From: Gemmatimonadales bacterium
GTDB lineage: Bacteria; Gemmatimonadota; Gemmatimonadetes; Gemmatimonadales; GWC2-71-9
Length of the DNA stretch: 48,509 nt
NCBI GenBank assembly: GCA_036395195.1
Contig: DASWDP010000051.1
Location: 1 to 48,509, forward strand
Direction of reading: 5' to 3'
The notes under the pieces were generated by a model. The model saw nothing but the letters and a program-made list of their open reading frames with translations, searched no databases and had not been told where the DNA came from. Within the stretch, counting starts at the first letter, position 1, and each line of letters opens with the position of its first letter. Positions 768-30,135 of this stretch are shown one piece after another. Position numbers and translations under genes: made by a program.

Positions 768-807
768 ACGCGTCTGTGCGCCTCGGCGTCTAGGCGTCTC
801 GTCGTTT
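768..807 (+). repeat. tandem octamer array (ACGCGTCT GTGCGCCT CGGCGTCT AGGCGTCT CGTCGTTT) directly abutting the 5' end of tRNA-Ser(GGA)
   Basis: Read directly from the sequence. It is complementary to the array at 906-931, with GCGCCTCGGCGTCT pairing to AGGCGCCGAGGCGC with one G-U. Confidence 0.75.
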
Positions 808-894
808 GGATAGGTGGCCGAGCGGCTGAAGGCACACGCCTGGAGAGCGTGTAAACGGGTAACCGTTTCGTGGGTTCGAATCCCACCCTATCCG
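808..894 (+). tRNA. tRNA-Ser, anticodon GGA (class II tRNA with long variable arm); no encoded CCA
   Basis: Acceptor GGATAGG pairs with CCTATCC and the discriminator is G. The anticodon stem is CACGC/GCGTG with loop CUGGAGA. The variable arm is TAAACGGGTAACCGTTTCG and the T arm is GTGGG-TTCGAAT-CCCAC. Confidence 0.93.
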
Positions 895-905
895 CTACGT
901 AACAA

Positions 906-931
906 AGGCGCCGAGGCGCCGAGACGCCGAG
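906..931 (+). repeat. tandem octamer array AGGCGCCG AGGCGCCG AGACGCCG AG, the reverse complement of the CGGCGYCT unit
   Basis: Read directly from the sequence. It can pair either with 768-807 (enclosing the tRNA) or with 993-1024 (enclosing a 60-nt spacer that itself contains GTGGATGTGAGG...CCTCGTATCCAC and the palindrome AGAGGCCTCT at 952-961). Confidence 0.75.
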
Positions 932-15081: not shown

Positions 15082-15971
15082 ACCCCCGTTGTAGGACGCT
15101 ACGACGCTACGTTGTACGAGGTGCGGCCAGGACGGTCCTCGGTGTTATCGTTGGCGTCTTGGCGTCCTGGCGTCTGGCAACGGGGCAGGGCGGTGACTGG
15201 GTTGCCACTCCGGCTCGTCCGACGGTCGGAGATACGATTTGGCTCCAGCGTTTGATTAGCGTACCGGGGGGATGGCGGGTGCGGGCGGGGAAGCTCGAGG
15301 CCACCGAGCAAGTCGAGGCGCTCGGCGACCCCGCGGTGCTCCGGGTTCCAGGAGGGTGGGTGGTGCGCTACCCCGTGGTCGCGTGGGCCCCCGGGGCCGA
15401 GACCATCGCGCTGCCGCCGATCTGGCGGCTCGGTCCCGACGGCCGGGCCGACTCGACGGGCGGTGGCACGGCGAGCTTCACCGTCGCGAGCGTCCTTCCG
15501 GATACGCTGCGTCGGGCGGCGCCGCGGGGGCTCATCGGCCCCCTGCGCCCCGAGCGCCGCAATCCACTCCTGCCGCTCGCCGCCGTCGCCGTATCCGCCG
15601 GCGTGCTCGCGGCCGGGATCGTGTTGCGACGGCGTCCGCCACGCGAGGTCGTCGCCCCGGTTCACGTTCCAGTGGAACATGAGGTCCCGGACGCCCGCTG
15701 GCTGGCCGCCGGGGAGCCGAAGGCGGTGGCCGCGCGGGCGACGTGGCACCTGCGCGCGGCACTCGCCCGCGCGGTCCCCGAGGCGCACCCTGCGCTCAGC
15801 ACGCAGGAGTGCCTCGCCGTCGTCGCGCGGGTCCGGCCCGACGCGCCGGTGCGCGAGCTGCGGGACCTGCTCGAGCAGCTCGACCGCGTGGCGTTCGCCT
15901 CCGCCCACGGCACCGACGTGGCTGGCCTCGCCGCGATGGCCCGCGGGCTCGCCCAGGAACTCGCCCCGTGA
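15078..15971 (+). CDS. membrane protein occupying the DUF4381 slot of Bat/MoxR operons, with an extra ~140-aa N-terminal extracytoplasmic domain
   Basis: It has an N-terminal signal or TM segment, a central TM (LLPLAAVAVSAGVLAAGIVL), and a C-terminal helical region ending in a DUF4381-like ...TQECLAVV...LLEQLDRVAFA. It has ATGA/GTGA overlaps on both sides. Confidence 0.6.
   Translation: MNPRCRTLRRYVVRGAARTVLGVIVGVLASWRLATGQGGDWVATPARPTVGDTIWLQRLISVPGGWRVRAGKLEATEQVEALGDPAVLRVPGGWVVRYPVVAWAPGAETIALPPIWRLGPDGRADSTGGGTASFTVASVLPDTLRRAAPRGLIGPLRPERRNPLLPLAAVAVSAGVLAAGIVLRRRPPREVVAPVHVPVEHEVPDARWLAAGEPKAVAARATWHLRAALARAVPEAHPALSTQECLAVVARVRPDAPVRELRDLLEQLDRVAFASAHGTDVAGLAAMARGLAQELAP
15093..15178 (+). 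repeat. inverted pair of octamer arrays (GACGCTAC x2-3 at 15093-15118; GGCGTCTT GGCGTCCT GGCGTCTG at 15149-15178) inside codons 6-34 of the CDS
   Basis: Read directly from the sequence. The arms pair only when G-U pairs and two mismatches are allowed. The central spacer contains the palindrome AGGACGGTCCT. Confidence 0.55.
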
Positions 15972-16948
15972 GCTTCGCGCGGCCGATCCTGCTGCTCGTC
16001 CTCGCCGCGCTCCCGCTCTGGTGGTGGCTCCGCAACAAGCGCCTGGGCGGGCTCCGCGGCACGCGCATGAGCGACGTCCGGCCCGCGAGCGGGGTGGCGG
16101 CGCGGCTGTGGGTCGCCCGGCTGCCCGTGAGCCTCCGGAGCCTGTGCCTCGGGGCGTGGATCGTCGCCGCCGCCGGTCCCCGGGTCGGGGCGGCGCGCAC
16201 CGAGACGCGCAGCGAAGGAATCTCGATCGTGCTCGCCATTGATCTGTCGAGCAGCATGCTGGCCGAGGACTTCGCGCCGGCGAACCGGATCGACGTGGCG
16301 AAGCGGACGGCGCTCGACTTCGTGCAGGCGCGCGCGTCCGACCGGATCGGCCTGGTCGCGTTCGCGGCCCAGGCGCTGACGCTCGTGCCCCTCACCAACG
16401 ACTACGCCGTGCTCGACCAGGCGCTGCGCGATCTGAAGATCGGCATCCTCGAGGACGGGACCGCCATCGGTACGGGCATCGGCACCGCGGCGAACCGGCT
16501 GCGGCGCGCTCCGGGGAAGAGCAAGGTGATGGTGCTGATCACCGACGGCGTCAACAACCGCGGCACCGTGGACCCGCGAACGGCGGCGCAGGCGGCGGCG
16601 GCGCTCGGCATCCGGATCTACGTGATCGGGGTCGGCATCCGGGGAGAGGCTCCCGTGCCGACGGGCCAGGGGCTCGAGGGTCTCCGCTATCAGATGATGC
16701 CGGTCGAGATCGACGAGCCGCTCATGACCGAGATCGCTTCGATGACCGGGGGGCGCTACTACCGCGCCACCGACACGGAGTCGCTGCGGCACGTGTTCGA
16801 GGAAATCAACCGGCTGGAGAAGACGACCGTGGAGCAGGTCGTGTACCGGCGCTACGAGGAAGCGTACCGGGTCCCGCTGGCGCTGGGACTCCTGGCCCTG
16901 GCGCTCGAGGTCGTCCTCTCGGCGACGCTCGCGATCCGGGTGCCCTGA
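15968..16948 (+). CDS. batA: BatA-like vWA-domain membrane protein
   Basis: It has the N-terminal TM LLLVLAALPLWWW, the vWA MIDAS block VLAIDLSSSM, the block MVLITDGVNN and a C-terminal TM. There is a GTGA overlap upstream. Confidence 0.85.
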   Translation: MSFARPILLLVLAALPLWWWLRNKRLGGLRGTRMSDVRPASGVAARLWVARLPVSLRSLCLGAWIVAAAGPRVGAARTETRSEGISIVLAIDLSSSMLAEDFAPANRIDVAKRTALDFVQARASDRIGLVAFAAQALTLVPLTNDYAVLDQALRDLKIGILEDGTAIGTGIGTAANRLRRAPGKSKVMVLITDGVNNRGTVDPRTAAQAAAALGIRIYVIGVGIRGEAPVPTGQGLEGLRYQMMPVEIDEPLMTEIASMTGGRYYRATDTESLRHVFEEINRLEKTTVEQVVYRRYEEAYRVPLALGLLALALEVVLSATLAIRVP

Positions 16949-18633
16949 TGACCTTCGACGCCCCGGTGGTGCTGGCGCTGGCGCCGCTGGTCGGCGGCGC
17001 GATGTGGTTCGCGGCGGCGTGGGCCCGGCGCGCGCGCATCCGGCGCGCGGCTCTGTGGTCGGAAGAGACGGTGCGCCGCGCGCTCGCCGCGGGACGCCTC
17101 GGGCCCACCGCGCTCTCGGTGTCCGCGTTCCTCGGCGTCGTGGCGCTGGCCGGCCCGCGGTGGGGTGAAGAGCGGATCGTGACGGAGACCCGCGGGCTCT
17201 CGCTCGTGATCGCCGTGGACATCTCACGCTCGATGCTCGCCGAGGACGCGCGCCCGAGCCGCCTGGGGCGCGCGCTGCGCGAGGCGCGGCGGCTCCTGCA
17301 GGACCTGGACGGCGACCGGATCGGCCTGGTCGCCTTCGCCGGCTCGAGCTATATCCTGGCGCCGCTCTCGATCGACGGCTCCGCGCTCACGCTCTACCTC
17401 GACGCGCTCGATCCCGACGTCGCCTCCGAAGGGGGGACCGCCCTCGCGCCGGCGCTGCGCCAGGGCGCGGAGCTGCTGCGCGCCGGCTCCGACCTGGCCG
17501 ACCGCGTGCTGGTCGTGTTCACCGACGGCGAAGCGCACGACACCCTCGCCGGGATCGTCGCCCAGGCGGAGCGTCTCCGGGCGGCCGGCGTCCACCTGAT
17601 TCTCGTCGCCGAAGGCGGCCGGGCGCCCGCGCGCATCCCCGTGCGCGACGATCGCCGGACGCTGGTCGGCTGGCAGCGAAGCGACGAAGGCGCGGTGATC
17701 GAGACGGCGCGGCGTGACGACGTGCTGGGCGCCGTCGCGGACGCGGCGCAGGGGACGCTCGTCGCCGCCGACCTCCCCGATCAGGCGGGCGCGGTGCGCG
17801 ACCTCGTCGCGTCGTACAAGCGCGCCCGCGCGAGCGAGAGCCGCGCCGAGCGCGGGCGCGCCCGCGCCTGGGTGCCGCTCATGCTCGCCGCCCTGCTGCT
17901 CGTGGTGCAGGCCGCCACCCGGCGCACCGCGGCGCTCATCGGGCTCGCGCTGATCTGCCTCACTCCGCCGCGGGCGGTGGCGCAGCAGCCGCCCCCCCCC
18001 TCGTCCCCCCCGCCCTCCCGCCCGCGCACGCCCGCGGAGAAGGCGTGGGATGCGCGGCAGCTCGCGCGGGCGCGCGAGGCCTACATGACGGAGCTTGCCA
18101 GGCGCCGCCACGACGATACCGCTTGGTACAACGCCGGGACCGCGGCCCTCGCCGACTCGGACGCCGAAACGGCGCAGGCGGCCCTGACGCACGCCGGCGC
18201 CTCGCTCGACCCCGAGCTGCGGTTCCGCGCCCTCTACAACCTCGGACTGCTGGGGCTGCGCCTCGCCGACGCGGACAGCGCGAACCGCGACGCCCACCTC
18301 ACGGACGCCGAGCGCGCCTACCGCGAGGCGCTGTTGCTGCAGCCGGGCAACGTCGCCGCCAAATGGAACCTCGAGCTCGCGGTCCGGCGGCGCGGCGGCG
18401 GGTCGAGCACCCGGCAGAACGCACCACCCTCGGGCGGCGGCGGGGGAGGCGGCGGGGGCGGTGGTGGTCAGGGGGGTGGTGGCGCCCGGGGCGATGGGGG
18501 GCAGGCCGGAGGACTCAGCCAGGCTCAGGCGGACGAGATCCTCCGGTCGCTCGGCCAGGAGGAGCTGAACACGCGGCGCGACCGCACCGGCCACCTGCGA
18601 CGCGCCGCCGAGCCGGGGGTGAAGGACTGGTGA
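16948..18633 (+). CDS. fused BatB-like vWA domain plus BatC-like TPR domain protein, with a Pro-rich linker and a Gly-rich tract
   Basis: It contains the vWA block VIAVDISRSM, the block LVVFTDGEAHD, a TM segment, TPR-like AWYNAGTAAL...ALYNLGLLGL, then GGGGGGGGGGGQGGGG and the C-terminal block SQAQADEILRSLGQEE. Confidence 0.8.
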   Translation: MTFDAPVVLALAPLVGGAMWFAAAWARRARIRRAALWSEETVRRALAAGRLGPTALSVSAFLGVVALAGPRWGEERIVTETRGLSLVIAVDISRSMLAEDARPSRLGRALREARRLLQDLDGDRIGLVAFAGSSYILAPLSIDGSALTLYLDALDPDVASEGGTALAPALRQGAELLRAGSDLADRVLVVFTDGEAHDTLAGIVAQAERLRAAGVHLILVAEGGRAPARIPVRDDRRTLVGWQRSDEGAVIETARRDDVLGAVADAAQGTLVAADLPDQAGAVRDLVASYKRARASESRAERGRARAWVPLMLAALLLVVQAATRRTAALIGLALICLTPPRAVAQQPPPPSSPPPSRPRTPAEKAWDARQLARAREAYMTELARRRHDDTAWYNAGTAALADSDAETAQAALTHAGASLDPELRFRALYNLGLLGLRLADADSANRDAHLTDAERAYREALLLQPGNVAAKWNLELAVRRRGGGSSTRQNAPPSGGGGGGGGGGGGQGGGGARGDGGQAGGLSQAQADEILRSLGQEELNTRRDRTGHLRRAAEPGVKDW

Positions 18634-20995
18634 TCACGGCTCTCTGGCTGCTCGTCGCGCTGCAGGGCCCCCAAGGAGTGGACGGGGCCGCGCTCGACGT
18701 GACGGCGCGCGTGGACCGCGTGCGCCTGACGGCGGGTGAGCAGCTGTTGCTGACCGTGCGCGCCCGCACGCGCTCGGCCGAGCCGGTCTCAGTGGTGCTG
18801 CCGGCGCTCACCGGGTTCGCGATCGTGGGCTCGCGCGAGGTGACCGAGGTGACGATCGAGGGCCTGGGCGGCCCCGTGCGCACCACCACCCGCGAGCTGC
18901 AGCTGCGGGCGCAGCGTCCCGGCACGCTCGTGGTCGGCCCGGTGCGGGTACGCCAGGGCCGCCGCGAGGTCGGGACGGCGCCGATCACCGTGAGCGTTGA
19001 CAGCGCCGCCGTCGGCCTGGCGACGACGCTCTCCCCGATCGCGCGCAGCCTCATCGACGCCGCGCCGTCCCCGGCACCCTCGCGGAGCGACCGCGTCGCG
19101 CTCACCGTGATTGTTCCGGGCGACTCGGGGCTGGTCGGGCAGCAGTTCGACGTGATCGCAGCGGCGTGGTTCCCGCGGGAGTTGCGCGGGCGGCTGCGCC
19201 GGGCGCCGGTTCTCACTCTGCAAACGCCCGAGGGCGTGTGGGCGTATCCGGGTGCGGCGCCGAGCGAGGTGGCGGCGTCGCGGCTCGTGCGGGGGCAGTG
19301 GCTCGATCTGTTCGTGGCGCACCAGGCGGTGTTCCCGCTCGCGCCCGGGCGCATCGTGATTCCCCCGGCCACGGTTCAGTATGCGGTTCCGGCCAGTTTC
19401 TCCTTCTTCAGTCGCGAGGAGCGCTTTTCGCTGCGGAGCGATTCGCTGCCGGTCACCGTACTGCCTCTCCCAGAGGCCGGACGGCCCGTCGGGGACCAGC
19501 ACGTGGTCGCTCAGGGACTCGACCTCGCGTTGACGATCGATCCGGCCGACAGCCGCGTGGGGGAGCCGATCGACGTGATGGCGACGGTGTCCGGTGTGGG
19601 GAACGTGGCCCTCTGGCCCGAGCCCGCGATCCGGTGGCCGGCCGGGTTCCGCGCCTACGCCGGCGAGACGGGGATGCGGGTCACCCCGCGCGACGGCCGG
19701 ATCGGCGGTACCAAGACGTTCCACTACCTGGTCGTGCCGGACTCGGCGGGCTCGTTCCTGCTGCCGGACGTGCGCTACCCCTACTACGACATCGCCGCCG
19801 GCCGGTACGCCGCAGCGGCCACCGCTCCCCGCGCGCTCGCCGTGGCGCCGGGGATCGAGCCGCGCGCGGCGCGCGCGCTGCCGCCGCTCGCCCGACCCGC
19901 GATCGCGGTGTGGAGCGACGCGCTGGCGCGCGACCTGATCCCGTGGGGCTGGCTCGCGTTGCTCGTCGGGCCGCCGCTCGTCGCGTGGCTGTCGCGCCGC
20001 CGCGGCGCGCCGCGGCTCGCGCCCGACGCGCTCGCGGCGGCGGCGCCGCTCACGCGGCTCGGCCGGCTCGAGCGCGCGTTCCACAGCGTGCTCGCGAACC
20101 ATGTTCCCGACGCGCAGGCGCGCGACGGGGACGGCCTGGCGCGGGCGCTGCGCGCGTCGGGCGTCGAGAACGCGGTGGCCGATCACGTGATGCGGCTGCG
20201 CGACCGGCTGCGCGCGGCGCGCTACGGGCCCGACGGGCTGGGGGATGCGGTGGAGCTGGCGGCGGAGCTCGAACAGGTGCTGCAGGTGCTCGGTGCAGAG
20301 CCGTCCGGGGGGCGGCGTCGTGTCGCGGCGCTGCTCGCGCTGGTGGCGCTCGCGGCGGCGCACGCGGGCGCCGCGCAGGGGCCGAGCGCCGAGGCGCTGT
20401 ACGACGCGGGCGCGCTGCGCGCCGCCGCCGATTCGTTCGCCGCGCGGGCCGCCGCGGAGCCGGGCGTGCCCGCGCACTGGTACAACCTCGGCGCCACGCT
20501 GTACCGCGCGGCCGCGGACGGCAAGGCGACCGCCGCCTGGGCCGTGGCCGCGCGACTCGCGCCGCGGGACCCGCTGTTGCGGCGCGCCCGCGCCCTCCTC
20601 CCGGCGCCCGACGCCGCGACCGAGCCGCTGCTCGCAGCGGGGCGCGCGACGCCCCACGAATGGGCGCTCGCGGCGGCAGCCTGCTGGTTGGTCCTCTGGG
20701 GCGCGGTCATCGCACGGCGGCGGCGCACCGTCGTGATCGGCCTCGCGGTCCTCACCCTCCTGGCGGCGGGGCTCGGCGGGCTCGCCGCGGCGCGGCGGGC
20801 GCGGCCCGTGGCGGTCGTGATCAATCCCGGGACGCAGGTGCGCGTCGCCCCGTACGGCGGGGCGAGTCCCGTGTCCACGGTCGAGCCGGGTGCGGCGCTC
20901 CTCGTGGCGCGGCGCTACGGGGGGGGCGCCTGGCTCGAGGTGCGCCGCGCGGACGGCGTGCACGGCTGGGTGCTCGCCTCCGAAGTGGTGCGGTT

Positions 20996-20999
<4 letters not shown>
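18630..20999 (+). CDS. fused BatD-like (oxygen tolerance) plus TPR plus C-terminal SH3b (BatE-like) protein, 789 aa
   Basis: The N-terminal BatD-type repeats resemble VDRVRLTAGEQLLLTVRA...F.IVG. A TPR block (HWYNLGATLYRAAADGKA) follows, then TM segments and the C-terminal SH3-like block GAWLEVRRADGVHGWVLASEVVRL. There is a GTGA overlap upstream. Confidence 0.8.
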
Positions 21000-22726
<1,727 letters not shown>

Positions 22727-22729
22727 ACT

Positions 22730-23716
22730 TTGACGGTGCCGCACCGACCGCTGGTCCCGGTAATCGTCGGTCCCACCGCCGTCGGGAAGACGGCGGTCGC
22801 GGCCGCGTGGGCCGGGCGTGCAGCGGTCACCGTCATCTCGGCGGACGCGCGCCAGGTGTACCGGCCACTCGACATCGGGACAGCGAAGCCGGATGCCGAG
22901 CTGCGGGCGCGCGTCCCGCACGTGGGGCTCGATCTGATCGATCCGGGGGAGCGCTACAGCGCGGGGCGGTTCGCGCGCGACGCCGCGGAGTGGCTCGGCG
23001 CGATCCGCGCCGCGGGGCGGCAGCCGGTCATCGTGGGCGGCACCGGTTTCTACGTGCGGGCGTTGGCCGAGGGGCTGTTTCGCGAGCCGCCGCTCGACGC
23101 GGCCCGGCGCGACCGGCTGCGCCGCTGGAGCGCGCGGCTCTCCGCCGCCGAGCTGGCGCACTGGGCGGCGCGACTCGACCGGCGGTTCGCCGGTGGCGGC
23201 CGGCAGCGCGCCGCCCGCGCGATCGAGGTCGCATTGCTCACCGGGCGCGCCCTCAGCTGGTGGCAGGAGCACGCGCGCGAGACGGGGGTCATGCGCCCGT
23301 GGTACATTCATCTCACACTGCCGCGGGACGCGTTGCACCGGCGGATCGCCGAGCGGGTGGATCGCATGCTCGCCGCGGGGCTGGTGGACGAGGTGCGGCG
23401 CGTGCTCGCCGCCGGCGTATCGCCGGGCGCGCCCGGGCTCGACGGCGTCGGCTACCGCGAGGTGGTGGCGCTGCTCGAAGGGCGGATTCCCGAGGCGGGC
23501 CTGCGGGACGCGATCGTCGCGGCGACCCGGCAGTACGCGAAGCGGCAGCAGACGTGGTTTCGACATCAACTGCGGGACGAGGGACGGGGGACGGGGGACG
23601 GGTCGGTGTGGATGCTCGATGCGACGGACGAACCCAACGTGCTCGCCCAACGGATCGTGGAACGCTGGCATGCGATCACCCGTCCCCCGTCCCCCGTCCC
23701 CCGTCCCGTTCGCTGA
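22730..23716 (+). CDS. miaA: tRNA dimethylallyltransferase
   Basis: It has the P-loop VIVGPTAVGKTAVA plus ADARQVYRPLDIGTAKP, VGGTGFYVRAL and RQYAKRQQTWFRH. The start is TTG 22730 (GTG 22736 is an alternative). Confidence 0.93.
   Translation: MTVPHRPLVPVIVGPTAVGKTAVAAAWAGRAAVTVISADARQVYRPLDIGTAKPDAELRARVPHVGLDLIDPGERYSAGRFARDAAEWLGAIRAAGRQPVIVGGTGFYVRALAEGLFREPPLDAARRDRLRRWSARLSAAELAHWAARLDRRFAGGGRQRAARAIEVALLTGRALSWWQEHARETGVMRPWYIHLTLPRDALHRRIAERVDRMLAAGLVDEVRRVLAAGVSPGAPGLDGVGYREVVALLEGRIPEAGLRDAIVAATRQYAKRQQTWFRHQLRDEGRGTGDGSVWMLDATDEPNVLAQRIVERWHAITRPPSPVPRPVR
23574..23708 (+). repeat. inverted pair of heptamer arrays, (GGGACGR)x4 at 23574-23608 and (CGTCCCC)x4 at 23678-23708, with a ~70-nt spacer, at the miaA 3' end
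   Basis: Read directly from the sequence, with more than 20 nt of near-perfect complementarity. The arms encode GRGTGDG and RPPSPVPRPV and bracket the conserved C-terminal block VWMLDATDEPNVLAQRIVERW. Confidence 0.85.
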
Positions 23717-23717
23717 C

Positions 23718-24851
23718 ATGAGAATTGGAATTACGTGCTATCCGACCTACGGCGGCTCCGGCGCGGTCGCGACCGAGCTGGGGCTCGAGCTGGCGCGGCG
23801 CGGCCACGAGGTCCACATCATCTCGTACGCGAGCCCGTTCCGGCTGCGCGGGGGATACGCCGAGCGGGTGACGTTCCACGAGGTCGTGCCGGCCGATTAC
23901 CCTCTGTTCGAGCACTCGCCCTACGCCCTCGCGCTCGCCGTGAAGCAGCACGAGGTGGCGCTGCGCGAAGGGCTCGAGCTGATGCACGCGCACTACGCGA
24001 TTCCGCACGCGGCGACCGCGTGGCTCGCGAAGCAGATGCTCAAGGAGCAGCGCGACCTGAAGGTCGTGACTACCCTCCACGGTACCGACATCACGCTCGT
24101 GGGGCAGGACCCCTCCTACTTCACGATCACCAAGTTCTCGATCGAGCATTCGGACGCCGTGACGGCCGTCTCCGAGTTCCTCAAGGAGGAGACCTACCGG
24201 GCGTTCGGGTGCGTGGGCTGTGACGTGCAGGTGATCCCGAACTTCGTGTCGGCGGCCGACTTCTCTCCCGCGACGGACGGGGGGGGCACGTGCCGCCGCG
24301 CGCTGGCGCCCGCCGGCCACAAGATTCTCATTCACGTGTCCAACTTCCGGCCGGTGAAACGGATCGTGGACGTGGTCCGGATCTTCGCCGCGGTGCGGCG
24401 GGCGCTCCCCGCGACGCTGGTGCTCGCCGGCGACGGCCCCGATCGCGATATCGCCGAGGAGGAGGTGGACCGCCTGGGCCTGCGCGCCGACGTCCGGTTC
24501 CCGGGCAAGGTGGATCGCGTGCCGGATCTGCTGCGGGGCAGCGATCTGTTCCTGCTGCCGTCGCAGAACGAGTCGTTCGGGCTGGGCGCGCTCGAGGCGA
24601 TGGCGTGCGGCGTGCCCGTGCTCGCCAGCCGGGTCGGCGGGCTGCCGGAGGTGGTCGTGGACGGCGAGACGGGATATCTGGCCCCGGTCGGTGCCGTGGA
24701 CGAGTTCGCCGAGCGGGCCGTGACGGTGCTCAAGGATCCCGCTCTGCACGCGCGACTTCGGGCGGGCGCGGCGGCGCGCGCCAGCGAGTTCTCGGCCGAG
24801 CGGATCGTGCCCCGCTACGAAGCGCTCTATCAGGACGTCCTGCGTGCGTGA
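23718..24851 (+). CDS. bshA: N-acetyl-alpha-D-glucosaminyl L-malate synthase (bacillithiol biosynthesis glycosyltransferase, GT4)
   Basis: MRIGITCYPTYGGSGAVATELG...HAHYAIPHA...TTLHGTDITLVG...GLPEVV closely follows the BshA pattern as I recall it from Bacillus YpjH. Confidence 0.85.
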   Translation: MRIGITCYPTYGGSGAVATELGLELARRGHEVHIISYASPFRLRGGYAERVTFHEVVPADYPLFEHSPYALALAVKQHEVALREGLELMHAHYAIPHAATAWLAKQMLKEQRDLKVVTTLHGTDITLVGQDPSYFTITKFSIEHSDAVTAVSEFLKEETYRAFGCVGCDVQVIPNFVSAADFSPATDGGGTCRRALAPAGHKILIHVSNFRPVKRIVDVVRIFAAVRRALPATLVLAGDGPDRDIAEEEVDRLGLRADVRFPGKVDRVPDLLRGSDLFLLPSQNESFGLGALEAMACGVPVLASRVGGLPEVVVDGETGYLAPVGAVDEFAERAVTVLKDPALHARLRAGAAARASEFSAERIVPRYEALYQDVLRA

Positions 24852-25677
24852 CGTGCTGCGGCTCGTCCGCGCCCACAACCTGCTCATCGCCGCGGCCGGC
24901 GTGCTCGCCGGAGGGTGGATCGCCCTCGAGACCGTCGCGCTGCCCCCCCCCAAGCTGCTCGGCTTTGCGGCGCTCGCGGCCGCCGGCTTCGCGGCGGCGG
25001 GGAACACCCTCAACGATCTATGGGACGCCGCGGCTGACCGGGTGAACCGGCCCGGGGGCGAGCGCCCGCTTGCGGCGGCGGGACGGATCGCGCGCGGCAC
25101 GGCGCACCTGTGCGTCGTGGGGGGTGCGCTCGGGGGCCTCGCGGCGGCGATGCTGGTCGGCGGGACGGCGGTGCTCGTAGGTGCCGCCGCGCTCGCCGTG
25201 ATGATCGCGTATTCACCGGTCCTCAAGCGGCGCGGTCTGGCGGGCAACCTCGCCGTCGCGCTCGTCGCCGGGCTGCCGCTCATGTACGGCGCGATCGCCG
25301 TGGGGCGCCCCGCGGCCGGCGTCGTGCCGTGGACGCTCGCGGCGTGGATGCACCTGGTGCGGGAGATCGTGAAGGACCTGGACGACGAGCCAGGCGACCG
25401 CGCGCTGGGGCGCCGCACGCTGCCGATCGTCTTCGGCCCCCGGCGCGCGGCGCTCGTGGCGGCGGCGCTGGCCGGTCTGTTCGTGCCGCTCTCGCTCGCG
25501 CTGCCGGCGAGGGCGCACTACGCGTGGCCCTATTTCGTGGTCGCCCTGTTCGCCCAGCTCGCGGTGCTGCTCGTCGCGACCCGGCTGCTCGTGGGACGAA
25601 CACCGGGCAATACCGTACTCCTCAAAGGAGCGATGCTCGTCGGGATCGTGGCGCTCGTGGCGGGGCGGGTCGCATGA
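24844..25677 (+). CDS. UbiA-family prenyltransferase (DGGGP-synthase-like), 277 aa
   Basis: It has the Asp-rich motif NTLNDLWDAAADRVNRP...RPLAAG, a second motif KDLDDEPGDRALGRRTLP, and about 8 hydrophobic helices. Confidence 0.8.
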   Translation: MRDVLRLVRAHNLLIAAAGVLAGGWIALETVALPPPKLLGFAALAAAGFAAAGNTLNDLWDAAADRVNRPGGERPLAAAGRIARGTAHLCVVGGALGGLAAAMLVGGTAVLVGAAALAVMIAYSPVLKRRGLAGNLAVALVAGLPLMYGAIAVGRPAAGVVPWTLAAWMHLVREIVKDLDDEPGDRALGRRTLPIVFGPRRAALVAAALAGLFVPLSLALPARAHYAWPYFVVALFAQLAVLLVATRLLVGRTPGNTVLLKGAMLVGIVALVAGRVA

Positions 25678-26456
25678 CGTTGTGGCAGGGAATCATCCTG
25701 GGACTGGTGCAGGGGGTCACGGAGTTCCTCCCGATCTCGAGCTCCGGGCATCTCGTGCTCGTGGAGGCGCTCACCGGCATCCATTTCACGGACGTGACCG
25801 TGGAGGTGTCCCTGCACGTGGCCACGCTCGGGTCGGTGCTGGTGGTTTACGGAGCCCGGCTGTGGGAAATCGCCCGCGGCGCGTTGCGCGGCGACGGCCC
25901 GAGCGTGCGCTACGCGGCGTTGCTCATCCTCGCGACGATCCCCGCCGGCTTGATCGGCGTCCTGTTTCACCGCCAGATCGAGGAGCAGTTCCATTCACTG
26001 GTCTGGGTCGGCATCCAGTTCGTGATCACGGGCGTCATTCTGTGGGCGACCCGTGGGTCGCGCGGCGAGCGGACCTTTCCCGCGCCGGGCGCCGCGGTCG
26101 GCATCGGGTTCGCCCAGGCGTTCGCCATCCTTCCCGCCATCTCCCGATCGGGCGCGACCATCGCTGCGGCCCTGTGGGCAGGGCTCACGCCCGCGGCGGC
26201 AGCGGACTTCAGCTTCCTGATGGCCGTTCCCGTGATCGCCGGCGCCGCCGTGCTCGAGGGACGCCAGGTGGTGCTCAACGTCGCGGCCGTGGGCGCCTTG
26301 CCCTGGGCGGTGAGCTTCGTGGTGGCGTTCGTCGGCGGTATCTGGTCCATCAAGTGGCTGGTGGCGCTGCTCCGGCGCGGCCGCTTCCACGTGTTCGCGC
26401 CGTACTGCTGGATCGTGGGCGTGCTGACGCTCGCGTACGCCCTGTGGCCGGCCTGA
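25674..26456 (+). CDS. uppP: undecaprenyl-diphosphate phosphatase
   Basis: It contains GLVQGVTEFLPISSSGHL and QAFAILPAISRSGATI. There is an ATGA overlap upstream. Confidence 0.93.
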   Translation: MTLWQGIILGLVQGVTEFLPISSSGHLVLVEALTGIHFTDVTVEVSLHVATLGSVLVVYGARLWEIARGALRGDGPSVRYAALLILATIPAGLIGVLFHRQIEEQFHSLVWVGIQFVITGVILWATRGSRGERTFPAPGAAVGIGFAQAFAILPAISRSGATIAAALWAGLTPAAAADFSFLMAVPVIAGAAVLEGRQVVLNVAAVGALPWAVSFVVAFVGGIWSIKWLVALLRRGRFHVFAPYCWIVGVLTLAYALWPA

Positions 26457-27196
26457 CGCTCGACGGCGTGCCCGCGGGCGACCTGGCCCCGCGCTGGGGC
26501 GTGCCGCGGTGCGAGCTGGTCGCGCGGCTCGGCTCGACGCTCGACGCGGCGCACCACCTCGGAGCGGCGGGTGTCCCCGCCGGCACGACGCTGATCGCGG
26601 AGGAGCAGACGGCGGGGCGCGGGCGCGACGGGCGCACGTGGCATTCGCCCGCGGGCGGCGTGTGGCTCGCCATGCTGCTCAGGCCGGCGCGCGCGGAGCT
26701 CGGCGCCGTGTCGATCCGCGCCGGCCTGGCGCTCGCCGACGCGGTGGACGCCCTGCTCGGCCGCGCCGAGACCCGCCTCAAGTGGCCGAACGACGTGCTG
26801 CTGGGCGACCGCAAGCTCGCCGGCATCCTGTGCGAGGGGCGCTGGCAGGGCGTGGCGCTCCAGTGGCTCGCCGTCGGCGTCGGGGTGAACGTGTGCAACG
26901 CGATCCCCGCCGACGTCGCGCGGCGGGCGGTGGCGCTGCATGAATGGCTCCCGGCGGTCCGCCGGATCGACCTGCTCGACCGCCTCGTCCCCGCCCTCGC
27001 CCGCCTCTCCGCGAGCGAGCCCGCGCTCTCGGTCGACGAGCGCGCCGCCTTCGCCGCGCGGGACTGGTTGCGCGGGCGCGAGCTGCGTGCGCCCGCCGCG
27101 GGGCGCGTCCGGGGGGTCGGTCCCGACGGCGCCCTGCTCGTGGACGCCGGCGGGGGGACCGTCGCCGTGCGCGAGGGGCGCGTCGAGCTGGCGTGA
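26444..27196 (+). CDS. birA: biotin--[acetyl-CoA-carboxylase] ligase (class I, no N-terminal HTH)
   Basis: It contains EEQTAGRGRDGRTWHSPAGGVWLAMLL and KWPNDVLLGDRKLAGIL. The start is GTG 26444, overlapping uppP by 13 nt. Confidence 0.88.
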   Translation: MAGLTLDGVPAGDLAPRWGVPRCELVARLGSTLDAAHHLGAAGVPAGTTLIAEEQTAGRGRDGRTWHSPAGGVWLAMLLRPARAELGAVSIRAGLALADAVDALLGRAETRLKWPNDVLLGDRKLAGILCEGRWQGVALQWLAVGVGVNVCNAIPADVARRAVALHEWLPAVRRIDLLDRLVPALARLSASEPALSVDERAAFAARDWLRGRELRAPAAGRVRGVGPDGALLVDAGGGTVAVREGRVELA

Positions 27197-27263
27197 GAGG
27201 GGACGGTAGAAGACGGTAGAGGACGGTAGAGGGCGGTAGAGGACGGTAGAGGACGGCGAGAGG
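27197..27263 (+). repeat. left arm: six tandem decamers (GGACGGTAGA AGACGGTAGA GGACGGTAGA GGGCGGTAGA GGACGGTAGA GGACGGCGAG)
   Basis: Read directly from the sequence. Confidence 0.95.
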
Positions 27264-27345
27264 ATCGCTCCCGCCGCCTCATTTTGTCACCGCCGGCAAC
27301 GATACGGTCCGACGGCCCGCCATGCCGGCGGTAGGTTGGGTCCGT

Positions 27346-27708
27346 ATGGCACCCTATGAGCAACTCAGAGCATGGCAGGAGTGTCACAAGCTCGTGCTCG
27401 AGACCTACCGAGCAACGAAGTCGTTCCCGAGGGAAGAACTCTACGGCCTGACGTCTCAGGCACGGCGAGCTGCGTTTTCGGCCGCCGCGAACATCGTCGA
27501 GGGATCATCCAAGCACGGCGCGCGAGAGTATCGTCGGTTTCTCGACATCACGATCGGTTCGCTGGCGGAGCTCGGGTACACCTTTCGCGTCGCAAGAGAA
27601 CTCGCGATGCTGTCGAGCCCGGATTGGGACGCGTTGGAGGATCTGCGACAGCGAGCGGGGTTCCTGACGTGGCGACTGTACAGGTCACTGGGCGACCGAG
27701 GGCGCTGA
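27346..27708 (+). CDS. four-helix-bundle protein (23S rRNA intervening-sequence protein / Avd-like family), ~120 aa
   Basis: YEQLRAWQECHKLVLETYRATKSFPREELYGLTSQARRAAFSAAANIVEGSSK...FLDITIGSLAELGYTFRVAREL is the typical pattern of this family. ATG 27346 is preferred over ATG 27322. Confidence 0.85.
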   Translation: MAPYEQLRAWQECHKLVLETYRATKSFPREELYGLTSQARRAAFSAAANIVEGSSKHGAREYRRFLDITIGSLAELGYTFRVARELAMLSSPDWDALEDLRQRAGFLTWRLYRSLGDRGR

Positions 27709-27714
27709 GACCTT

Positions 27715-27753
27715 CGCCCTCTACCGTCCTCTACCGTCTTCTACCATCTTCTT
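27715..27753 (+). repeat. right arm: about 3.5 tandem decamers CTACCGTCYT, the reverse complement of the left-arm unit
   Basis: Read directly from the sequence. CGCCCTCTACCGTCCTCTACCGTCTTCTACC is the exact reverse complement of 27205-27235, including the order of the variant units. Confidence 0.95.
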
Positions 27754-27758
27754 GCCCC

Positions 27759-28538
27759 ATGCTCCTCGCCATCAACATCAACAACACCGAGACGAAGGTC
27801 GGGCTCTTCCGCGGCGACAGCCTGGAGTCCCACTGGCGCCTCACGACCACGCCGTCGCGCACGCCCGACGAGTGGGCGGCCACGCTCACGGCGTACCTCG
27901 CCCAGGCGGGACGCTCCACGCAGGAGGTCCGGGCCGCGGTGGTCGCATCGGTGGTGCCGCCGATGACGCAAGGCCTGTGTGAAGCCGTGCAGCAGGCCAC
28001 CACGGTGTCGCCGGTGGTCGTGGACGGCCGCTCGACCCTCCCGATCAGGCTCGAGGTGGACGAACCGCTGCAGGTCGGGGCGGACCGCATCCTCAACACC
28101 CTCGCCGCCGCGCAGCTCTTTCACCGCGACACGATCGTGGTGGACTTCGGCACCGCGACCACGTTCGACTGCATCACCGGCGACGGCCGCTTCCTGGGCG
28201 GCGTGATCATGCCCGGCATCCGGACGGCCTCGGACGCGTTGATCCGGGGCACCGCCAAGCTGCCGGCCACCGATCTCACGCCGCCCCACCGCACCATCGG
28301 CCGTCGCACCGACGAAGCGATCCGCGCGGGCGTGCTGCTCGGCACCGCCGACGCGGTGAACGGCATCGTGCGCCGCATCAAGGCCGAGTGGCCGAACGGG
28401 AAGACCCCCCAGGTGATCGCCACCGGGGGTCTCGCGAGCCTCGTCGCGCCGCTCGCCCACGAGATCGAGTCGGTGCATCCCGACCTGACCCTCACCGGCC
28501 TGCGTTTCGCCGCCGCGGCGCTCGGCCTCAAGTGGTAG
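27759..28538 (+). CDS. coaX: type III pantothenate kinase
   Basis: It contains MLLAININNTETKVGLF, VVDFGTATTFD and ATGGLA. Confidence 0.92.
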   Translation: MLLAININNTETKVGLFRGDSLESHWRLTTTPSRTPDEWAATLTAYLAQAGRSTQEVRAAVVASVVPPMTQGLCEAVQQATTVSPVVVDGRSTLPIRLEVDEPLQVGADRILNTLAAAQLFHRDTIVVDFGTATTFDCITGDGRFLGGVIMPGIRTASDALIRGTAKLPATDLTPPHRTIGRRTDEAIRAGVLLGTADAVNGIVRRIKAEWPNGKTPQVIATGGLASLVAPLAHEIESVHPDLTLTGLRFAAAALGLKW

Positions 28539-29452
28539 CCGGGGCGCGCACCCTCAATCGCTGGCGCCGCTGGGGCTACCGGCTGCTCCCCGGCGAGCTG
28601 TTCTCCTACATCCTCCACACGCGCCCCGCCGAGTGGCCAATCATGGCGGGGCACACGCTGCTCGGGTACGTGCTCGCCGTGGGCCTCGGCGGAGCGGCGC
28701 GCGGGGAGCGGTTGCTGCCGGCGCTGGGTGCGCTGGTGATCTGGGTCGTGTTCCTGAACGGCGGCACGCTCGCGATCAACTCCGTGTTCGACAAGGACGA
28801 GGGTGACATCGGCTATCTGAACGCACCGCCACCGCTGCCGCGTCACCTCCTCGCCTTCAGCGGCGCGCTGCTCGCGGGCGGCCAGCTGCTCGCGTTCGCG
28901 CTGCCGGCGGCGTTCCGGATCGATTACGGCATCTGCTTCGCGCTTTCGTTGCTCTACTCGGTGCCGCCGTTCCGGTTCAAAGCCGTGGCGGGCGTCGATT
29001 GGCTCATCAACATGTGGGGCTTCGGAACGCTCACTCCGTTCGCGGCGTGGGCCGCGACCGGGCGGCCGCTCGACGCCGGGCACGCCCTCGTCCTCCTGGC
29101 CTTCTGCCCCCTCTTCGCGGGGCTCTATCCGCTCACTCAGCTGTATCAACTGGAGGAGGACCGCCGCCGCGGCGACCGCACCCTCGCGCTCCTCCTGGGG
29201 ATGCGGGCGAGCCTCGCGGTCGCGATCGCGTGCATCGTGCTGGCGTTCGCGCTGTTCGGCTGGGCGGCAGTGCTGTTGCCGGTGCGGGCATGGCTGCTCG
29301 TCGTCCCGCTCCTCGCGTGGCTCGCCGTGCTCGTGCCCTGGTATCGGCGGCGGGACGCGTTGCCTCCGGCGGGCCACCAGCGGGGGATGTACCGGGCGCT
29401 CGCGGCGTGGGCGCTCACCGATCTCGTGGTGCTGTTGGTGTTTGCCCGCTGA
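28532..29452 (+). CDS. UbiA-family prenyltransferase-like membrane protein, 306 aa
   Basis: It has the N-terminal block HTRPAEWPIMAGHTLLG, the Asp-rich block NSVFDKDEGD and 8-9 hydrophobic helices. GTG 28532 overlaps coaX by 7 nt. Confidence 0.7.
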   Translation: MVAGARTLNRWRRWGYRLLPGELFSYILHTRPAEWPIMAGHTLLGYVLAVGLGGAARGERLLPALGALVIWVVFLNGGTLAINSVFDKDEGDIGYLNAPPPLPRHLLAFSGALLAGGQLLAFALPAAFRIDYGICFALSLLYSVPPFRFKAVAGVDWLINMWGFGTLTPFAAWAATGRPLDAGHALVLLAFCPLFAGLYPLTQLYQLEEDRRRGDRTLALLLGMRASLAVAIACIVLAFALFGWAAVLLPVRAWLLVVPLLAWLAVLVPWYRRRDALPPAGHQRGMYRALAAWALTDLVVLLVFAR

Positions 29453-29508
29453 GACCGCGGACTTAGATTTGGCGGTGACAACCCTCTCGACCCAGGAGCT
29501 GTGACAGC

Positions 29509-30117: not shown

Positions 30118-30135
30118 CGGCGGGAGGGGGCGACG

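Follow-up and report, generated by a model that had tools for sequence, protein, structure and literature searches.

A candidate invertible cassette of the rRNA intervening-sequence type between birA and coaX in Gemmatimonadales

A four-helix-bundle gene between inverted decamer arrays

This study concerns a small gene cassette in a stretch of 48,509 nucleotides (nt) from a Gemmatimonadales bacterium (contig DASWDP010000051.1). The stretch was analysed at its full length and is called the window here; all coordinates refer to it. The cassette segment, 27197-27753, holds a gene for a four-helix-bundle (4HB) protein between two inverted arrays of decamers. To its left lies birA, encoding biotin-protein ligase (26444-27196, plus strand; PF03099, TIGR00121; also called as a gene on L103, an identical contig), the stop codon of which is 4 nt before the left array. 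To its right lies coaX, encoding type III pantothenate kinase (27759-28538, plus strand; PF03309, NF009855), the ATG of which follows the end of the right arm by 6 nt. It is these two genes that flank the cassette, which is not inserted in any 23S rRNA helix. The surrounding genes form a tightly packed string of ~13.7 kb (15743-29452), followed by gaps of 56 nt (at 29453) and 18 nt (at 30118); an earlier reading made from the letters of this DNA (the sequence-only reading) had put the string at ~22 kb.

The left arm (27201-27256) is made of 5.6 copies of the purine-rich decamer GGACGGTAGA, as found by Tandem Repeats Finder (TRF; score 98), rather than the six counted previously. In the right arm (27715-27752) the unit TCTACCGTCY, which is the left unit in reverse complement, is repeated 3.3 times; TRF places these copies at 27720-27752. 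By an inverted-repeat search the two arms are 97% complementary over 34 nt (27202-27235 with 27715-27748), with a core of 31 nt that pairs perfectly (27205-27235 with 27715-27745). Both the perfect 31-bp inverted repeat of the sequence-only reading and its mirrored order of variant units (AGAC, GGAC, GGGC) were recovered in this core. The bracket-stem score of the locus is 31; the null set, 256 random positions in related loci, averaged 8.8 and never exceeded 13. Folding of the RNA from 27190 to 27765 yielded -286 kcal/mol (z = -6.6), and the terminal stem is closed in the minimum-free-energy structure.

The 4HB gene (27346-27708, plus strand, 120 amino acids) is the only open reading frame (ORF) in the cassette. 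Profile hidden Markov models (HMMs) assign it to PF05635, '23S rRNA IVS protein' (IVS, intervening sequence), with an E-value of 1e-26 and 93.7 bits (cut-off 33.8), and to TIGR02436 with 87.1 bits (cut-off 24), in agreement with its previous placement among the Avd/23S-IVS four-helix bundles. The closest solved structure is that of the pentameric protein XCC0516 (2GSC, E 6e-19). Homology places the start of the gene at 27346 (MAPYE...), while gene callers chose 27322. The cassette-internal region upstream of the gene (27257-27345, plus strand) is collinear among cassettes of either orientation, with part of its sequence conserved, and includes a conserved TAnnTT element (27332-27337) located 8 nt 5' of the ATG, a putative promoter of the gene's own or part of a leaderless start. 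Among cassettes this element is found 8-11 nt before the ATG, and it resembles an element that precedes coaX in empty sites. The cassette has no defence-system match in PADLOC.

The composition of the gene differs from that of its host. The fraction of G or C at third codon positions (GC3) is 0.72 in the 4HB gene, compared to a host mean of 0.945 +/- 0.027 and a minimum of 0.858 among 318 host windows, and 28% of its codons end in A or T, close to the quarter estimated by eye. All junction copies in relatives show the same deviation, with a cassette GC3 of 0.62-0.73 against ~0.90-0.95 for the host. That GC3 has not ameliorated, despite synonymous divergence of ~0.77 between copies, points to ongoing flux, to mutation under another regime or to selection acting on composition. 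Additionally, the ratio of nonsynonymous to synonymous divergence (dN/dS) has a median of 0.12, with dS ~0.77, across 31 distinct orthologous cassettes, and only 2 of ~50 copies are decayed. Judged by these comparisons, the 4HB protein is kept by purifying selection.

Distribution and orientation of the cassette

The set of loci used for comparison numbers ~170 in all and includes 80 orthologous coaX loci from species-representative genomes, contigs with close 4HB homologues and 80 metagenomic 4HB loci. Within a Gemmatimonadales clade the presence of the cassette at birA|coaX is patchy. Empty junctions, the existence of which the sequence-only reading had proposed to check, were found; they consist of a conserved 35-nt spacer in L011, L015, L017, L021 and L033 and of 5-10 nt in distant relatives. 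When filled and empty junctions were compared, a target-site duplication was not evident, and what is missing is simply the left portion of the 35-nt ancestral spacer. Three loci (L030, L031, L035) carry a gene-less hairpin with a TAGAGG-type unit as in the cassettes. Hairpins of unrelated units, without a 4HB cassette, occupy the junction in L013 and L058 (121-133 nt) and in L061 (80 nt); these units are GACGTCACGGAAA 13-mers (L013, L058) and GTGAGCGGTAAGC-type. An Rce1-like CPBP gene, apparently the ancestral occupant, is found at the junction in L023, L040-L043, L045 and L050, with remnants in L026, L036, L046, L049 and L056. The remaining occupants are an IS200-like Y1 transposase (PF01797, E 4e-21) between short palindromes of the repetitive extragenic palindromic (REP) kind (L024, L038) and, on the opposite strand, a gene for a small membrane protein (L025, L028, L037). 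The birA-coaX junction is a hot spot of gene turnover. In a tree of the flanking genes the junction states are interspersed, and the empty L011, for example, is sister to the cassette-bearing L012. Its patchy presence among relatives indicates that the cassette is dispensable.

At this junction the cassette is present in both orientations. The 51 copies comprise 22 on the operon strand ('+'; the window, L010/L039, L014, L018, L029 and others) and 29 on the antisense strand ('-'; L001-L009, L012, L022, L027, L034 and others), and with 40 distinct interiors placed on a neighbour-joining tree, parsimony requires at least 8 changes of orientation. In both orientations a G-rich array follows birA and a C-rich array precedes coaX, so that the polarity of the arms is kept, and the host sequence on the coaX side is the same in '+' and '-' copies. 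The reversed part is the interior only, composed of the ~90-nt upstream region, the gene and a tail of ~8 nt. Additionally, the units co-vary between the two arms, which are of the GGACGGTAGA, GGTCGGTAGA, GGTCGGGAGA and CCTAGAGG types. Fixed arms around an inverted interior, together with this co-variation, are what would be expected if the inverted arms recombine or undergo gene conversion with each other.

Independent assemblies of the same species agree in orientation (L002-L009 are all '-'; the window and L103-L106 are all '+'). Both orientations are also present in k141 MEGAHIT assemblies, in which k exceeds the arm length, indicating that the difference in orientation is not an assembly artefact. 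Flipping thus appears to be recurrent on an evolutionary scale and is seen between species only. The sequence-only reading had described the locus as IVS topology within an mRNA operon; as a description of the architecture this stands, but as an account of how the gene is expressed it does not, since more than half of the junction copies are antisense. Apart from these copies, contig L119 (1243-2003) shows the 5' end of coaX on both sides of the cassette, inverted, with a 'stem' of 130 nt. This is most likely a fold-back artefact of the de Bruijn graph arising from the inverted arms, and a caution for the assembly of such loci.

The gene was also found elsewhere in the genomes of Gemmatimonadales, where its copies carry arms as well. 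The 4HB genes at other sites are 58-88% identical to that of the window, and nearly all lie between inverted arrays; a bracket stem of at least 14 is present in most of 78 metagenomic 4HB loci, compared to a null maximum of 13. An array core, RGRCGGTARR with 10-nt spacing, is common to 65 distinct loci (329 units). Clustering of flanks from a blastn comparison distinguished at least 8 contexts within Gemmatimonadales, the largest being birA|coaX (41 loci), S9 peptidase/DUF1003|acyl-CoA dehydrogenase (22 loci) and the 3' end of rpmA (8 loci), with smaller ones besides. At all sites the arms lie within 0-5 nt of the neighbouring stop codon. The rpmA site again has both orientations (L132 versus L112, L140, L149, L163 and L184) and very different interiors, and the interior of L112 is 86% nucleotide-identical to the cassette of the window, indicating that interiors move or are exchanged between sites. 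From this distribution, the arms appear to belong to the 4HB gene as a unit. The extra copies with arms, the bracketing of other 4HB genes by inverted units of their own, and the presence in relatives of the gene with both arms and non-native codon usage had all been named as points to check by the sequence-only reading, and each was found. Near the gene for LptD in L096-L099, we also observed a gene-less array hairpin, GGACGGGC x8.5-9.5 / CCGACCGC x4.2 with a 77-nt loop, ~1.1 kb downstream of a 4HB gene whose own cassette arms are GTACGGCG x10.

Outside the phylum, tblastn yielded ten PF05635 loci in plasmids, nine of which are bracketed by inverted arrays with scores of 14-24 (local null at most 13). 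The bracketed loci are from Calothrix (two), Trichormus, Picosynechococcus, Pseudanabaena, Stanieria, Geminocystis, Nostoc punctiforme and Azospirillum lipoferum AZO_p2. Each has a unit of its own, mostly a heptamer. The AZO_p2 copy, with arms of GAGGACG-type heptamers, lies inside a 23S rRNA gene (Rfam large-subunit rRNA, LSU) and is therefore a genuine IVS. Two of the plasmid copies are inserted within CRISPR-Cas operons: the bracketed cassette of Picosynechococcus (L188) is between cas10 and cmr3, and that of Pseudanabaena (L189) is between cas6 and cas4 and has 10-15 heptamer copies in direct and inverted sets.

Array hairpins without the gene and competing explanations

The window contains further array hairpins that enclose no 4HB gene and are not part of the cassette. 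One (22015-22131, plus strand; GGGGCTC x4.9 / CGAGCCC x5.3, 53-nt loop) lies in the translated interdomain linker of MutL, and another (23573-23708, plus strand; GGGACGG x4.1 / CCCGTCC x4.1, 74-nt loop) at the 3' end of miaA. Most close relatives have both at the same positions, with a heptamer that differs by genome. The mutL and miaA arrays are both translated, and the mutL-linker array keeps the reading frame in 66 of 67 loci; its loop encodes a conserved 'W..G...P.ELF' that is also found in distant relatives without arrays. The miaA arrays flank the last ~25 codons, with a loop of 72-92 nt in all relatives, and their heptamers vary (AGTCGTC, CGGGAAA, GTCAGAC, GACGTCA, GGAGTTG and others) such that the pairing is kept as the sequence changes. 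The position of the MutL hairpin is ~5 kb upstream of coaX (L011-L063), and slippage by one unit would frameshift mutL. A custom HMM applied to the 80 orthologous loci detected no 4HB-like ORF, neither within the hairpins of mutL and miaA nor at other places in these loci. Near the start of the window, a tRNA-Ser(GGA) gene (808-895) is bracketed by inverted 8-mer arrays (782-931, plus strand; arms 782-804 / 909-931, 23 nt, 87% complementary), and a second array hairpin (906-942 / 980-1016) precedes tRNA-Ser(CGA) (1025-1111). These arrays (765-1021) resemble processing stems of the rRNA type, here set around a tRNA.

We consider it probable that the element between birA and coaX is an IVS-type hairpin cassette residing in mRNA operons, that it changes site by movement or exchange, and that arm-to-arm recombination inverts it. 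The mobile, foreign-looking hairpin cassette proposed by the sequence-only reading agrees with every sequence-based test that it had put forward. Neither the repeated flipping nor the gene-less array hairpins were foreseen there, and the hairpins at mutL, miaA, tRNA-Ser and gene-less junctions make clear that array stems in this lineage are not confined to 4HB genes.

Several results weigh against our interpretation. The gene-less hairpins in the operon, together with the unrelated-unit hairpins at the junction (L013, L058, L061), indicate that a host process can build such arms; because the mutL and miaA loops encode native conserved peptide, those arrays arose in situ around host sequence. 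A stem-building process thus exists at the level of the lineage and may contribute to the arms of the cassette. Mismatches compatible with G.U pairing show no strand bias, either in the gene-less hairpins (36 versus 42) or in the cassettes (61 versus 52, p = 0.45), so that nothing argues specifically for constraint at the RNA level and homogenisation at the DNA level suffices. Rfam at its gathering threshold identified two tRNAs in the whole window and no RNA family on the cassette, and a consensus scan of 27100-27850 for sigma-70 promoters and intrinsic terminators returned zero matches. We sought a near-identical pair of opposite orientation and found none above 93.7% identity, and inversion is therefore perhaps rare and incidental. 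Likewise, there are no near-identical cassettes at different sites (the closest inter-site pair is 86% identical), and neither a mobility enzyme nor a target-site duplication accompanies the cassette; its movement is thus inferred from its distribution and not from fresh transposition. Lastly, our neighbour-joining trees carry no support values, and recombination in lineages of metagenome-assembled genomes could inflate the counts of gains and flips.

In one rival explanation the host lineage itself builds and keeps array-stem hairpins at many places, either for RNA processing or stability or through template switching and slippage of DNA; the 4HB gene would merely sit in one such loop, and the arms would not be a property of it. 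The hairpins of mutL and miaA, with their conserved positions, species-specific heptamers and host-encoded loops, speak for it, as do the arrays around tRNA-Ser and the hairpins of unrelated units at birA-coaX. Xanthomonas provides a further parallel, with 70-75 inverted pairs of heptamer arrays (GGGAATC) that are intergenic and convergent (PMC4692102). However, the arms of 4HB genes share a decamer core and 10-nt period at no fewer than 8 unlinked sites, whereas the gene-less hairpins use arbitrary heptamers; PF05635 genes are bracketed in cyanobacteria, Azospirillum and Coxiella too, and no 4HB gene was found in the mutL and miaA hairpins of 80 loci. We regard this explanation as unlikely. 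The strict 10-nt phasing, equal to one helical turn, invites a different proposal in which the arrays are iterons, putative sites for binding of the pentameric 4HB protein in autoregulation or mobilisation, with the hairpin secondary. Avd, a relative of the 4HB protein, is a pentamer that binds nucleic acid and reverse transcriptase (RT), and RGRCGGTARR is conserved with its phasing in cassettes that have diverged to 58-100% protein identity while the protein is under purifying selection. However, from phylum to phylum the units are entirely different, most of those elsewhere being heptamers, and the inverted symmetry with mirrored order of variant units is better explained by copying from arm to arm. 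We judge the iteron proposal quite improbable.

The two orientations raise the possibility of a programmed inverton, in which the arms would serve as recombination sites and a flipped, promoter-bearing interior would toggle coaX and the genes downstream or produce antisense to birA. Consistent with this, the interior is found both ways round at two sites, at least 8 flips are counted, and the conserved upstream region would read toward coaX in '+' copies and toward birA in '-' copies. Nevertheless, no invertase or recombinase gene was found within ~4 kb in any locus, the arm sequences vary between species, unlike sites of site-specific recombination, each set of contigs from one species has a single orientation, and even the closest opposite-orientation pair (93.7%) is not near-identical. 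A switch of this kind is very unlikely. Finally, it is hardly credible that the locus is a plain intergenic ORF beside a repeat that arose by chance, or an artefact of assembly. The assembly is of metagenome type, and inverted repeats do confuse de Bruijn graphs, as the fold-back contig L119 illustrates; yet dozens of independent assemblies contain the structure, among them k141 contigs from MEGAHIT with k beyond the arm length, and the stem score is far above its null.

Returning to the invertible IVS-type cassette, a mechanism can be outlined. The cassette would be a self-contained unit consisting of a PF05635 gene of ~120 amino acids, its own ~90-nt upstream region and two inverted purine-rich decamer arrays. 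Because '+' and '-' copies alike keep the gene intact behind the same conserved upstream region, we infer that it is expressed from its own putative promoter. In a transcript that crosses the junction, whichever the orientation of the interior, the arms would form a duplex no shorter than 31 bp, a type of substrate that is cut by RNase III in rRNA IVSs, and by this analogy processing of the cassette stem by RNase III is plausible. Through the arm duplex an insert between cistrons could become tolerable, or the message of birA could be parted from that of coaX. Since the decamer contains TAG and has a period of 10, translation that runs inward through an arm should meet a stop within 30 nt whatever its frame, which would insulate the insert from translation arriving from either side. 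Ectopic recombination between shared arrays is one possible route to new sites and would explain the exchange of interiors.

Relation to rRNA intervening sequences and other systems

ORF-bearing 23S rRNA IVSs occur in Leptospira, Coxiella burnetii and Haemophilus, where they are located in helix 45 or helix 25. To our knowledge, neither these IVSs nor the 'S23p'/Avd-like 4HB proteins have been assigned a function or an origin in more than 30 years. The IVS of Coxiella is 428 nt long, with a terminal stem of 28 bp and an S23p ORF in the loop; it has tandem GACAGAT heptamers of variable copy number, and RNase III excises it in vitro (PMC4990558). The likeness to IVSs drawn by the sequence-only reading is borne out in that this element and the IVS of Azospirillum 23S rRNA share the architecture of an ORF within an array stem. 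Like the 23S rRNA IVSs, the cassettes have a PF05635 ('S23p') ORF in the loop, a length of the element in the range of ~430-560 nt, a terminal stem of ~28-31 bp built from short tandem repeats of variable copy number, and a sporadic distribution. In contrast to them, the cassette of the window lies between protein-coding cistrons; relative to the host transcript it is found both ways round, and its units are 10 nt long. Strong purifying selection also acts on its ORF, whereas that of Coxiella is decaying.

As far as these comparisons reach, the ORF-bearing rRNA IVS would be one context of a wider type of cassette. The presence of the same ORF-in-hairpin unit between ordinary cistrons of several phyla recasts the rRNA IVS as one landing site. 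The IVS kind itself is known; what is new here is an invertible, IVS-type 4HB cassette in mRNA operons, and our literature search returned nothing specific on IVS-like 4HB cassettes outside rRNA or on array hairpins of Gemmatimonadota. The operon junctions, with their two orientations and their empty and gene-less-arm alleles, offer natural test systems. For annotation, 4HB genes in operons (birA|coaX, cas10|cmr3, cas6|cas4, after rpmA) are to be viewed as inserts that possibly affect the processing of operon RNA. A bolder and rather doubtful extension is that PF05635 genes with inverted-array arms form a phylum-spanning class of hairpin elements, with rRNA IVSs as its best-known context, in which the encoded pentamer would build, maintain, invert or mobilise array-stem hairpins, and the gene-less hairpins at mutL, miaA and tRNA-Ser would be its targets or satellites.

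Other systems share part of this organization. The link between PF05635 and Avd, the accessory protein of diversity-generating retroelements (DGRs), is stated in PMC10053308; the 4HB protein has a homologous four-helix-bundle fold and belongs to the same family, and the PHROG profile 'Avd protein of DGR' matches it weakly (E 3e-4). A DGR was rejected, as no RT domain is found in genes within ~4 kb and there are no long direct repeats of the template/variable (TR/VR) kind; unlike a DGR Avd, the 4HB gene stands alone inside inverted arrays. With invertons the cassette shares an interior that is found both ways round between inverted repeats, and it differs from them in the lack of an adjacent invertase, in arms that are species-specific tandem arrays and in flips that are seen between species only. 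MITEs (miniature inverted-repeat transposable elements) and REP elements with their associated tyrosine transposases (RAYTs) are similar in their terminal inverted repeats, hairpin potential, intergenic place and gene-less derivatives (L030, L031, L035), and a Y1_Tnp gene occupies the very same birA-coaX junction in L024 and L038. Both the insertion sequence (IS)/MITE and the REP/RAYT assignments were rejected, given tandem-array arms, inter-site identity of at most 86%, and no transposase, target-site duplication or genome-wide identical consensus. An integron gene cassette was also rejected: arms are present at both ends in place of a single 3' attC, and the neighbourhood contains no integrase. 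Finally, the cassettes resemble the GGGAATC pairs of Xanthomonas and the tandem heptamers of cyanobacteria in having short intergenic tandem arrays as convergent inverted pairs. The Xanthomonas pairs, however, use one genome-wide unit and have no gene linked to them, whereas each 4HB cassette has a locus-specific unit that encloses a 4HB gene.

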